From contig OZ024741.1 in NCBI GenBank assembly GCA_964016885.1, positions 231,632,001 to 231,696,000 on the forward strand: 64,000 nucleotides of DNA. The letters run 5' to 3'. The stretch is from Eledone cirrhosa. Taxonomy: Eukaryota. Below are positions 14,943-62,178 of this stretch, one piece after another (the stretch's first letter is position 1; each line of letters starts with the position of its first letter). Under the pieces are notes generated by a model. The model saw only the letters and a program-made list of their open reading frames with translations. It searched no databases and had not been told where the DNA came from. Position numbers and translations under genes: made by a program.

Positions 14943-15016
14943 ATGACCAACCTAGCGTTAAATTGGATCCACATGAGATGTCAAATTCCAATTACATTGA
15001 AGGATCCTCTATAGAT
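14943..15016 (+). CDS. Exon A1 ([25 protein letters not shown])
   Basis: ctctatttcag|74 nt|gtaagt. Confidence 0.75.
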
Positions 15017-60000: not shown

Positions 60001-62178
60001 CAAACACAACAACTCCATTAACTAGATCGAAAATCGAAAGTGCACGGGCCTCTCGGAATAGATCTGGTATCTGTTTTTAGACAAGACCCGGCAATCTTTC
60101 GTTTGTTCCAGGGTCCAGGAAGTCCACACAGACGGAGGTGACTCGGCCATCTGCAGATTGTCTCTGACTGAGAGCCTTGATGTATTTATGTGTGTCCGGG
60201 GTGGGGGTGCGCTTATGTGTATATAATAGAATCAAATCACAATCATATATGCATATATATATATATATATATAAATGTATACACACACACACACACACAC
60301 GCATAGACACACACACATATATATATATATATATACAGTGAATCTTCGTTTATCCGGACGGTCAAAACCAAACATTTAGAAAAAAATCCGGTTAAATGAA
60401 ATATCCGGATAAGTGAATTCTATAATCCCATTGTTACATAATGCACGTGGTTTCTAAAGATTTGGCTTCTTTTAGTCAAAATAAAAGACAAATGCTACGT
60501 AAAGAAAGTTTATTAGAATAACAAAAGAACACATAGAATTTATGAGAAAATTAATTAAACAAACATAAGATAATTAAAAACTTGGTAAATCTGAATTGAA
60601 TCAAACCATAAAAAGTTACTACTTTTTAAAAAAATGAATAAATAGAAGATTGTTTTCGCGCCGAAGCTCGTCGTTCCGCTACCATTTCCCGCTACCATTT
60701 CCACGCAACAACTGAACGATCAACCGACTCCCTCATGTTTATTGCAAGTAAAAATGGAATCATTCCCGTGACCCCTTTTCCCATCAAATCCCGAAGCAAT
60801 GGTTTTCTGTAAATCCGCTTTAGTGTCTCCAAAGCTCCCTGGTTCATTGGTTAAATAAGTGATCTAACGTTCGCCGGAAGAAATGCTGCCCGAATCGGTC
60901 CGTCTGCCGAAATCAAGTCCTCCTCATCCGGAGGTAGTATAGAAATATCCGTCCGGTAAATCGAATATGGAAAATCGATATTCGGTTAAGCGAAGATGCA
61001 CTGTATATATATATATATATATATATATATATATATATACATATATATGTACTAGATATGAGTTGTTTCAAGTATATATTAACACGCACAATGAATATTT
61101 GTTATCAATACATATGAAACATTTAAGCAATTCATATGTTTTAAGTCTAATAGTGATCGTCTGAACTCAGAAATAGATATCAGAAGATGTTACAATCTGA
61201 TAGATATTGCCTGTCTCATGTTTGAGTGGTCGGCGACTAAACTGGTTACCACCAGACCAGCGTCTGGTGAGAAGGGTACGTGAAACCCCAGTTGCACAAA
61301 ATACAAGAGATATAAAAATTGAGGATGAAATCTTCAGGGTCAAATTCCATTTACCTCATCTATGGGTTAAATCGCCTCACCCCAGACAATTGGCCAAGTC
61401 TGATCTTTATAGTTATATAACTGACATGATCAAAACCAAGCAGAAAGCAGTGACGGTGAAGCTGGGAGATATCAATCTAACAGGAGTGGGAAGGACTCTG
61501 GATGGTATATATTTATATGTATGTGTCTGTATATATCAATATGTTTTCATTTTACTTGTGATATATAAACACATTTTGGTCATATATAACTGGATTCATG
61601 AGGATTTCCTGTTACTTCTCACATTTCAATCACATATTAACAGATAAATTTTTATTTCCACTGTCCTTTTCTACCTGAAAGTTCATGCTGATACATTTCT
61701 ACTAGTAGAGCGCATCCAAGTAAGCTACCAGGAAAGTAAATGTGCTAGTTTCTTCTGTAACATCGGAAAGACAGAAACTCACAGAAAGAAGGAGCTCCTT
61801 GATGTGGAATGGCCATTCTTCGCGGTAATACTTCCGTGATTTTGTCCGCGGGGCACAGTTAAATATGCCACCCGGATTGGGTTTTTGGCGTCAGTCGCAC
61901 ACTCCGGCATTTCACTACCTTTTGTAGCTTAAAATTACTTCATGTTTTTGCGTTTTTTCGTTTTTTAATTTCCGTTTCATCATTGTCATTTATATTGCAC
62001 AATTTACAACATATTTTTCCATTAGTTTAATAAATATTTATTTTTTAAACCATCTCATTCTATTTACACACATGAGAGACTAAAGTATTTGTTTTTATTA
62101 TGTGTTCATGCACAGTTATATGATAGAAGTTTAATCTCTGTTTCTCCTTTCAGAATCATAAGTATATAATAATAGAAG
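14943..62178 (+). CDS. Internal part of an unidentified multi-exon gene: 8 x (74-nt exon + 25/22-nt microexon) encoding 33/32-aa acidic Ser/Asp/Lys-rich repeats
   Basis: 16 exons, all with a polypyrimidine-CAG acceptor and GTAA donor. Phases 1-0 and 0-1 are complementary, and the joined 783-nt frame has no stop. No start or stop exon found. Confidence 0.8.
15980..16004 (+). CDS. Microexon B1 (NRKDIIIK)
   Basis: tttctcctttacag|25 nt|gtaagt. Confidence 0.78.
16050..16850. repeat. Degenerate CT-rich minisatellite block (aacatagactggacatta-ctctctc motif), repeated after exons B1-B6
   Basis: Recurrent gactggacatta and ctgattctctc motifs; block absent after B7 and B8. Confidence 0.7.
17170..17745. 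repeat. Old ~300-bp internal tandem dimer carried by most array units
   Basis: Two diverged copies of ...ggaccggcaat...ctggaattct...gaatccagc...acagactgtt...ggtatattgcc. Unit 3 has lost the first monomer and unit 7 has lost both. Confidence 0.85.
17870..18531. repeat. Inverted repeat with ~205-bp arms and ~250-bp spacer (unit 1 only)
   Basis: ~17870-18075 is the reverse complement of ~18325-18531. Confidence 0.88.
20604..20677 (+). CDS. Exon A2 ([25 protein letters not shown])
   Basis: ctctatttcag|74 nt|gtaagt. Confidence 0.78.
21244..21912. mobile_element. Tc1/mariner-superfamily (pogo/Tigger-like) MITE, unit 2
   Basis: TIRs CAGTGaatcttcgcttatccgga / tccggttaagcgaagatgCACTG, flanked by TA. 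Confidence 0.85.
21940..22832. mobile_element. Unit-2-specific insertion in (TA)n with direct-plus-inverted terminal repeat structure (pLTR-like)
   Basis: ~21940-22145 is repeated at ~22498-22702, followed by an inverted partial copy at ~22703-22832. The other units have only (TA)n here. Confidence 0.75.
24000..24024 (+). CDS. Microexon B2 (NLMDIIIE)
   Basis: tttctcctttacag|25 nt|gtaagt. Confidence 0.78.
27587..28666 (+). CDS. PLE polyprotein C-terminus: RT end/thumb, Cys linker and GIY-YIG endonuclease (359 aa, uninterrupted)
   Basis: [32 protein letters not shown]...[39 protein letters not shown]. Confidence 0.92.
   Translation: MESIQQIANSIHQSITVTIDFPSKHPNNSLPVLDTELWINTIDEKAQILHSHYAKPMASKYLILKNSAMSSSAKFNILIADLVRVMKNVSSKCDPTEMERHIQHFINRRQFSGYNQRDRVRVYEGAMEKYKTLIELDMKGICPLYRSKSWNSLDRARHKIGKATSWYDNQRYQSVMFVDATPGGKLANQCRKALRKTHLKIKVVEKPGTTIKSLISKTYPFKKTHCTNRKCIICKMNPRINCKTRNVFYSIRCTEGTCKNMTTTYIGETARSIGERIDQHWGELKGRKNGSVLYEHARQQYDGNIDNIEIRIISKHRNDPADRQIREASEIEIRRPKLNRKNEWNNNNTQTNNTDLREV
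28934..28980 (+). ncRNA. Hammerhead-like core in the PLE 3' tail
   Basis: CTGACGA-t-GTTGCA-gatg-TGCAAC-GAAA with a perfect stem II; stems I and III are poorly formed. Confidence 0.45.
29466..29539 (+). CDS. Exon A3 ([25 protein letters not shown])
   Basis: ctctatttcag|74 nt|gtaagt. Confidence 0.8.
30092..30765. mobile_element. pogo/Tigger-like MITE, unit 3
   Basis: TA|CAGTG...CACTG|TA. Confidence 0.85.
31971..31995 (+). CDS. Microexon B3 (NRKDIIIK)
   Basis: tttctcctttacag|25 nt|gtaagt. Confidence 0.8.
35304..35377 (+). CDS. Exon A4 ([25 protein letters not shown])
   Basis: ctctatttcag|74 nt|gtaagt. Confidence 0.8.
35940..36595. mobile_element. pogo/Tigger-like MITE, unit 4
   Basis: TA|CAGTG...CACTG|TA. 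Confidence 0.85.
37813..37834 (+). CDS. Microexon B4 (NRKDIIK, 22 nt)
   Basis: tttctcctttacag|22 nt|gtaagt; in-frame 3-nt loss. Confidence 0.8.
40795..42476. mobile_element. Unit-4-specific insertion: four monomers of family X (two +, two -) in (TA)n
   Basis: + monomers at ~40795-41317 and ~41318-41622, inversion point ~41622/41623, - monomers with 464-bp period. The empty site (TA)n-cggaatgac is present in units 3 and 6 (ccgaatgac in unit 5). Confidence 0.85.
42581..42831 (+). mobile_element. ~250-bp solo pLTR-like insertion in (TA)n carrying a hammerhead
   Basis: Absent from the homologous (TA)n in other units (e.g. ~34450-34480); contains the hammerhead below. Confidence 0.75.
42639..42709 (+). 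ncRNA. Minimal type-I hammerhead ribozyme with intact core
   Basis: tgttttat-CTGATGA-~15-bp stem II-GAAA-tgcgca-TA-ataaaata. 8-bp stem I, palindromic loop III, overlapping AATAAA. Confidence 0.82.
43698..43771 (+). CDS. Exon A5 ([25 protein letters not shown])
   Basis: ctctatttcag|74 nt|gtaagt. Confidence 0.8.
44337..44994. mobile_element. pogo/Tigger-like MITE, unit 5
   Basis: TA|CAGTG...CACTG|TA. Confidence 0.85.
46183..46204 (+). CDS. Microexon B5 (NRKDIIK, 22 nt)
   Basis: tttctcctttacag|22 nt|gtaagt. Confidence 0.8.
50100..50173 (+). CDS. Exon A6 ([25 protein letters not shown])
   Basis: ctctatttcag|74 nt|gtaagt; identical to A5. Confidence 0.8.
50738..51395. mobile_element. pogo/Tigger-like MITE, unit 6
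   Basis: TA|CAGTG...CACTG|TA. Confidence 0.85.
52608..52629 (+). CDS. Microexon B6 (NRKDIIK, 22 nt)
   Basis: tttctcctttacag|22 nt|gtaagt. Confidence 0.8.
56599..56672 (+). CDS. Exon A7 ([25 protein letters not shown])
   Basis: ctctatttcag|74 nt|gtaagt. Confidence 0.8.
57231..57888. mobile_element. pogo/Tigger-like MITE, unit 7
   Basis: TA|CAGTG...CACTG|TA. Confidence 0.85.
59073..59097 (+). CDS. Microexon B7 (NGKDIIIK)
   Basis: tttctcctttacag|25 nt|gtaagt. Confidence 0.78.
59678..59751 (+). CDS. Exon A8 ([25 protein letters not shown])
   Basis: ctctatttcag|74 nt|gtaagt. Confidence 0.8.
60336..61003. mobile_element. pogo/Tigger-like MITE, unit 8
   Basis: TA|CAGTG...CACTG|TA. Confidence 0.85.
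62154..62178 (+). CDS. Microexon B8 (NHKYIIIE)
   Basis: tttctcctttcag|25 nt|gtaata. Confidence 0.72.

Follow-up and report, generated by a model that had tools for sequence, protein, structure and literature searches.

An intragenic array of ten exon doublets cut from the catalytic domain of an octopod receptor phosphatase

We analysed a 64,000-nucleotide stretch of the genome of Eledone cirrhosa (assembly GCA_964016885.1, contig OZ024741.1; the window, G000:C2:231632001-231696000, with C2 positions below given as contig coordinates) and found that it holds the first eight of ten tandem copies of a pair of short exons which originate from the catalytic domain of a receptor protein tyrosine phosphatase (RPTP). 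The host gene, hereafter G1, has lost the catalytic motifs of that domain, its cytoplasmic exons join in an open frame and it carries an excess of amino-acid change. The best explanation, to which we give a probability of about 0.6 from sequence data, is that two exons were duplicated tenfold within a motif-dead catalytic domain and that the copies are included in the spliced mRNA, where they encode an acidic repeat of ~294 extra residues within a pseudophosphatase.

The DNA of the window is AT-rich and rich in microsatellites, and its self-comparison reveals a tandem array running from ~14.9 kb to the window end. A sequence-only reading of this window had proposed eight units, each with a 74-nt exon (A) and a 25- or 22-nt microexon (B), whose joined sequence would be open and would occupy less than 2% of the span. 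All 16 exons were recovered where that reading had placed them (Table 1), namely eight A exons and eight B exons (five of 25 nt and three of 22 nt), seven of the B exons by a pattern scan and B8 by BLAST and inspection. They sum to 783 nt, i.e. 1.66% of the span, and their join is open in one frame and yields the peptides given earlier; the remaining two frames (15 exons joined) are packed with stops. The number of units has to be raised to ten, units 9 and 10 lying past the window end, so that the array spans 82 kb. The splice sites, described as canonical, do carry AG/GT throughout (40 of 40 dinucleotides intact across the ten units), but the donor of B8, GTAATA, is weaker than the other donors (score 9.1 versus 13.0 for B7, with a matrix built from 48 donors of these genes). 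Unit length varies from 3.1 to 8.8 kb within the window, and the introns hold transposon pieces. A search of the 3.0-Gb assembly returned 16 matches, comprising the ten array copies, four short flank-only matches and two single copies located ~1.0 and 1.3 Mb downstream of the array, in genes that we call G2 and G3. The array is also covered by public DNA contigs from one sample, which may be the source sample; shared pieces reach a depth of ~22-52 and others ~4-11, a pattern compatible with a real multi-copy array. The three sequencing runs (one sample) extend across the introns without any splice-site joint; they thus behave as DNA and are silent on splicing.

The unit had been regarded as a novel domain. 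It corresponds instead to two consecutive exons from the membrane-proximal catalytic domain (D1) of a receptor PTP, as indicated by Pfam (PF00102) and PDB matches. Exon A of the paralogues matches positions 14-36 of the PF00102 profile with E 4.5e-4 and 7.6e-4, falling slightly short of the curated cut-off. The three window A exons scanned (3/3) give no Pfam match at E ≤ 10, so that nothing in the window by itself reveals the PTP origin. When compared with PDB, the G2 exon retrieves 31 sequences at E ≤ 10, all of them named phosphatases and including both receptor and non-receptor PTPs. Array and paralogue exons share 80-87% DNA identity, flanks included. A full HMMER scan of 1.8 billion representatives with the G2 exon produced 57 matches, the best being Octopus bimaculoides XP_014769029, and a word-index search with the 51-aa paralogue exon produced none; the closest relatives of XP_014769029 are Octopus proteins with F5/8, EGF-like, transmembrane (TM) and two PTP domains. 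On this orthologue the doublet covers residues ~323-354. An AlphaFold2 model made of the orthologue only (32-sequence alignment, predicted local distance difference test score of 82-94 in the doublet block) places strands 342-345 and 350-354 within the doublet and resembles the D1-D2 tandem of PTP sigma/LAR with E ~1e-43. The duplicated motifs are those that we take to be named DxxRVxL, YINA and YIxTQGP, and human R2B phosphatases presumably have introns at the same places.

The host gene, which had been called unidentifiable, could be recognized as an octopod galactose-binding/EGF receptor PTP by mapping via Octopus proteins and the paralogues, a mapping that leaves aside the N-terminal exons and ~280 kb at 230.91-231.18 Mb. 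It spans ~0.9 Mb and is ordered as galactose-binding domain, EGF repeats, TM, D1 and D2, the two PTP domains forming a tandem behind a single TM and all lying on one strand. The earlier suggestion to look beyond the window for a phase-1 donor upstream and a phase-1 acceptor downstream was borne out, the former lying 196 kb before the array and the latter 27.6 kb past unit 10, at the exon at C2:231756852; pattern searches within 135 kb did not find the upstream exons because the intron measures 196 kb. Joined together, the upstream exon, the 20 array exons and the next exon form 382 codons with 0 stops. The 15 cytoplasmic exons Y-L and the last exon are colinear in G1, G2 and G3, and, genome-wide, close copies of the PTP-loop exon number exactly three. 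Exons D and E of G1 match the PTP profile (83-123, E 0.022; 130-176, E 4.4e-4), with no match for exon F scanned alone, and the TM exon, the galactose-binding exon and 11 of 12 EGF-like candidates are open. In exon G (C2:231793077-231793244) the donor used by the paralogues is lost and a new in-frame donor occurs 24 nt further. Between the end of G1 and the TM exon of G2 the galactose-binding exon occurs four times (C2:231839763, 232018288, 232186756 and 232501838), which would reflect either an ectodomain that has been amplified or additional truncated genes, and more diverged family members occur at C2:233090390 and 233102783, directly after G3, and at 230671545, 314022613 and 315461131.

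Catalytic motifs were judged against the descriptions in PMC7320164. In the C-X5-R PTP loop, G1 keeps the Cys and has Glu in place of the Arg, both residues being kept in G2 and G3. The WPD loop reads LPE in G1, WPD in G2 and WPG in G3. No NR-type motif of the KNRY phosphotyrosine (pTyr) loop is left in the G1 upstream exon, and the pTyr region of G2 and G3 retains RN followed by Q or R. Because the pTyr loop, the WPD motif and the C-X5-R arginine are all lost, D1 of G1 is predicted to be catalytically inactive.

As proposed by the sequence-only reading, a phase-symmetric and lineage-specific doublet has multiplied tandemly within a host gene without breaking the frame. Both ends of the unit are in phase 1, and each copy therefore adds whole codons. 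The nine extra units contribute 294 residues with 21% Asp, 14% Ser, 12% Lys and a net charge of -27. A tree of exon A with its flanks separates the ten units from G2/G3 (100/100) and groups units 2-8 in a young clade (100/100), the exons A of units 1 and 10 being nearest each other (97%). Within the young clade, exon A is 97-100% identical among units 4-7 and the flanking intron of units 2-8 is 95-99% identical. We infer that units 1, 9 and 10 are older and that units 2-8 stem from a recent burst. A tree based on B flanks was discarded as unreliable, unit 10 forming a long branch with odd composition. Only unit 10 retains the ancestral end of exon B, and in units 2-8 Asp, Ser and Lys have taken the place of the YINA-type motif and of the hydrophobic residues of the strands. 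Disorder of the repeat is plausible; by charge-hydropathy, the repeats could not be told apart from the paralogues' single units.

We propose that unequal crossing-over across a block of 3-9 kb would add whole codons owing to phase 1 at both ends. In the model of the orthologue, this exon pair forms a β-hairpin of the D1 sheet, so that one copy at most could pack, most likely unit 10 with its ancestral exon B end. The remaining nine units would protrude as a polar tract rich in Asp, Ser and Lys, placed between the core and the dead pTyr loop. By analogy, a likely role of G1 is that of a decoy or scaffold without catalysis, belonging to a rapidly evolving cluster of recognition receptors alongside paralogues in which C-X5-R is retained.

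Several lines of evidence bear on whether G1 has been maintained as a coding gene. With one unit in place, its 15 cytoplasmic exons amount to 547 codons with 0 stops, the product being 45% identical to O. bimaculoides XP_014769029 and 29-32% to the Octopus proteins P0070 and P0074. Exon lengths differ between G1 and G3 in 6 of 15 cases, all by multiples of 3 (compared with 7/31 for intron indels), the exon picker having demanded the right phase and boundary flanks being homologous in the three genes except for one shifted donor. The pairwise ratio of nonsynonymous (dN) to synonymous (dS) rates is 1.72 for G1 and G2 (bootstrap 1.34-2.40), 1.63 for G1 and G3 (1.21-2.36) and 1.13 for G2 and G3 (0.79-1.73); dS, at 0.15-0.17, agrees with an intron divergence of 0.14-0.17, for which only flanks >65% identical were counted. 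A codon model of 538 codons in the three paralogues gives omega 1.95, with twice the log-likelihood difference to omega=1 equal to 22.7. On the G1 branch, 157 nonsynonymous and 29 synonymous changes (378 codons) depart from the intron-derived neutral share of 0.245 (p 0.002) and 0 stops are observed versus 5.1 expected at the intron rate, with no departure from the neutral synonymous/nonsynonymous share on the G2 and G3 branches. For the ectodomain, dN is 0.22 and dS 0.19 over six exon pairs. An internal control is provided by a duplicated EGF exon of G1 which has decayed, with its acceptor lost and a stop gained. In the array itself, the 20 exons show 0 lost GT/AG, frameshifts or stops versus ~6.1 expected (P ~0.002, a rough value). 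An earlier count for exon A, 1 synonymous versus 25 nonsynonymous minority codons, overstated the signal and was superseded by a minimum-change count over A and B of 5 synonymous versus 33 nonsynonymous.

The following points weigh against a translated repeat in a living gene. The 6.1 expectation (2.4 GT/AG losses, 2.65 frameshifts and 1.07 stops, from flanking introns) comes from a small intron sample, with gaps partly in simple repeats. For the array alone, the 5 versus 33 share does not differ from neutral (p 0.13), and exon versus intron variability is not significant (p 0.11). Omega rests on three paralogues, some flanks of which bear signs of gene conversion (99-100% identity), and it describes the history of branches, not their present state. 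The weakened B8 donor matters in that skipping B8 alone would shift the frame. The chief difficulty concerns the low-complexity juxtamembrane exon, which should bridge the TM exon, with its phase-2 end, and the next intact exon, whose start is in phase 1. In G1 this exon is broken by frameshifts at or near A-runs, by a stop and by a fold-back that removes its 3' part together with the donor, and the 2.9-kb gap offers no strong substitute exon, the 13 candidates having donors that score ≤2.8 (the median of 48 real donors is 9.8). Either G1 died recently, or its halves are expressed apart, or a weak splice bridges them. The damage is of the same kind as the fold-back duplications and MITE-like hairpins (resembling miniature inverted-repeat transposable elements) seen in the window, usually beside TA runs, at 3444-3828, 14368-14849 and 22450-22830. 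The paralogues also depart from an intact exon, which is frameshifted at its 5' end in G2 and has no good acceptor in G3. In G2 it contains (C2:232584068-232589758) an open frame of 1,897 codons with tandem Glu/Pro/Ser/Arg-rich repeats, an independent cytoplasmic expansion.

That G1 is a recent pseudogene, which expanded its array and diverged under selection until the juxtamembrane lesion killed it, too recently for others to accumulate, is unlikely in our view. Such a death would explain several independent juxtamembrane lesions with no strong phase-2-to-1 substitute, and it suits a D1 domain whose catalytic motifs are all gone and the difficulty of fitting nine extra copies inside the fold of a working domain. 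The lesions are nevertheless confined to ~0.5 kb, none being present in the ~4.4 kb of other exons examined, and the same exon is damaged in G2, has a poor acceptor in G3 and contains the start of the O. bimaculoides gene model; the exon thus appears unstable across the family and is not a death mark specific to G1. The same oddities could mean that the gene is split, its ectodomain-TM and cytoplasmic halves being transcribed apart and the repeat residing in a soluble pseudophosphatase that starts at or after the juxtamembrane exon. The splice path from TM to cytoplasm is not good in G1, has a poor acceptor in G3 and a broken 5' end in G2, the orthologue model lacks a TM and both halves of G1 are open, but other octopus members splice through this exon (P0070-P0074 are full length) and the TM-less orthologue model may reflect fragmented annotation. 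As the main form of the gene we find a split rather unlikely, and it can coexist with the translated repeat that we favour.

The copies might also act as alternative cassettes, each mRNA using just one, or a small number, of the A and B exons to build variant D1 domains. Phase symmetry permits 10,945 in-frame paths, any A joined to a later B keeping the frame, all 40 GT/AG dinucleotides are kept, and microexons of 25/22 nt within multi-kb introns are skipping candidates. Units 2-8 taken singly would nonetheless fail to rebuild the hairpin, their strand residues and YINA-type motif having been replaced, and this alternative is quite improbable. An assembly artefact, or a non-coding repeat with exon-like features by chance, would account for the 97-100% identity of exon A across units 4-7. 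This is very improbable and largely refuted by units that differ in transposon content and intron length, by independent-assembly contigs that hold unit-specific and shared pieces at different depths, and by bona fide PTP exons flanking the array in the right order and phase. The translated acidic repeat in a motif-dead D1 thus retains our preference.

The nearest known relatives of G1 are the PTPRT/alpha-like RPTPs of Octopus (XP_014769029; O. vulgaris and O. sinensis P0070-P0074), which resemble it in domain order and in D1/D2 sequence and have in common with it a short Asp-Asn-Arg-Lys junction region. The relatives P0002, P0070 and P0074 and both local paralogues have one copy of the segment (the single copy of O. 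bimaculoides was judged from protein), whereas G1 has ten and has lost its D1 motifs. A likeness by architecture also links the G1 cluster to the SudRes1 RPTPs of Biomphalaria sudanica, which are linked to schistosome resistance: both combine multiple EGF repeats (MEGF), a galactose-binding domain (GBD), a single TM and tandem PTP domains in clustered recent paralogues, with many nonsynonymous differences and domain-length changes (PMC12297450). In contrast to G1, SudRes1 diversity is extracellular, with EGF loss, and the accessible text of that source describes no duplication within the catalytic domain (PMC12297450). An immune or recognition role for G1 could be suggested by analogy only. 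For a decoy role of its dead D1, the model is PTPRU, a receptor pseudophosphatase with altered pTyr, WPD and PTP loops in D1 that is reported to bind substrates of its active relatives (PMC7320164). The fold of PTPRU is uninterrupted and its changes are conserved (PMC7320164), whereas G1 has lost the C-X5-R arginine, carries a 294-residue insert and shows omega >1. The analogy drawn earlier with the Olduvai (DUF1220) domains of NBPF holds at the level of architecture, the mode of amplification being shared without DUF1220 homology: no DUF1220 match was found in the 3/3 array exons scanned (E ≤ 10), and the paralogue exons match PF00102 only. Both systems display intragenic tandem amplification of two exons with a recent lineage-specific burst, but the Olduvai doublet encodes a whole domain and the G1 doublet a mid-fold cut-out of an enzyme (PMC9313022; further context in PMC7959691). 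The literature searched, which left out most subscription journals and supplements, held no report of the array and none of exons being amplified within a PTP domain.

Table 1. Features of the exon array and of its host gene G1 (window positions, and contig positions on C2)
Feature	Window position	C2 position	Strand	Remarks
Last 15 kb of 196-kb intron after upstream D1 exon	1..14942		+	Retroelement remains
Units 1-8 of ten-unit array	14943..62178		+	Inside D1 of RPTP gene G1
Exon A1	14943..15016		+	74 nt, phase 1 to 0, older-type, 97% identical to A10
Exon B1	15980..16004		+	25 nt, phase 0 to 1
Exon A2	20604..20677		+	Young clade U2-U8
Exon B2	24000..24024		+	25 nt
Exon A3	29466..29539		+	
Exon B3	31971..31995		+	25 nt
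Exon A4	35304..35377		+	10/18 aligned residues shared with single PTP exon of G2
Exon B4	37813..37834		+	22 nt, 3-nt deletion, frame intact
Exon A5	43698..43771		+	Identical to A6
Exon B5	46183..46204		+	22 nt
Exon A6	50100..50173		+	
Exon B6	52608..52629		+	22 nt
Exon A7	56599..56672		+	Identical to A4
Exon B7	59073..59097		+	25 nt
Exon A8	59678..59751		+	
Exon B8	62154..62178		+	25 nt, donor weakened to GTAATA
Exons A9/B9	82537-82610/89586-89610 (window-equivalent)			
Exons A10/B10	95879-95952/97180-97204 (window-equivalent)			
Galactose-binding exon		230894983 (230.895 Mb)		PF22633, E 2.7e-6
Decayed EGF-like duplicate		231208620-231208760		0.6 kb before intact copy
EGF-like exons		231.209-231.416 Mb		
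TM exon		231422269-231422359 (231.4223 Mb)		
Two D1 exons before array		231.4253 Mb (231425289) and 231.4509 Mb		
Second of these D1 exons, last before array		231450891-231450978		
Rest of D1 and all D2		to 231.804 Mb		Past array

Other elements were noted around the array. A broken retroelement of the long interspersed nuclear element type occupies window positions 319-3200 (+), with an RVT_1 match (E 1.9e-6) in 1815-2219. Between units 2 and 3, a 366-codon open frame (27566-28666, +) has no Pfam match; we presume that it resembles the 3' half of a Penelope-type element with a GIY-YIG-like end. A short element at ~59158-59354 reaches a depth of ~700,000 in the DNA contigs and is thus a very high-copy repeat. 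Elsewhere in the genome, PTP domains without introns lie in long open frames at G000:C14:9149860-9164507 (three in tandem), C22:17643413 and C10:12086702, possibly as retrocopies.

Should RNA show G1 to be dead, the array would merely belong to an unusual pseudogene. Exon arrays normally multiply whole domains, whereas G1 multiplies a segment from within a folded enzyme, and exons of this kind would be missed by gene finders and masked by repeat maskers. Tentatively, and as a possibility that we rate well below even, a new repeat may have been born inside an enzyme fold: D1 died and its hairpin exons were amplified, acidified and kept spliceable, giving a cytoplasmic module variable in length or splicing (≤10,945 in-frame paths) within a positively selected cephalopod recognition receptor. 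On this view the cytoplasmic region of G2, inflated by another route, would indicate that a long acidic spacer beneath the membrane has been selected for more than once. Dated steps, from two single-copy paralogues through three older units to a young burst of seven, make the change from domain core to repeat traceable base by base, and dN/dS near 2 in the cytoplasmic domains flags this octopod cluster of galactose-binding/EGF receptor phosphatases.

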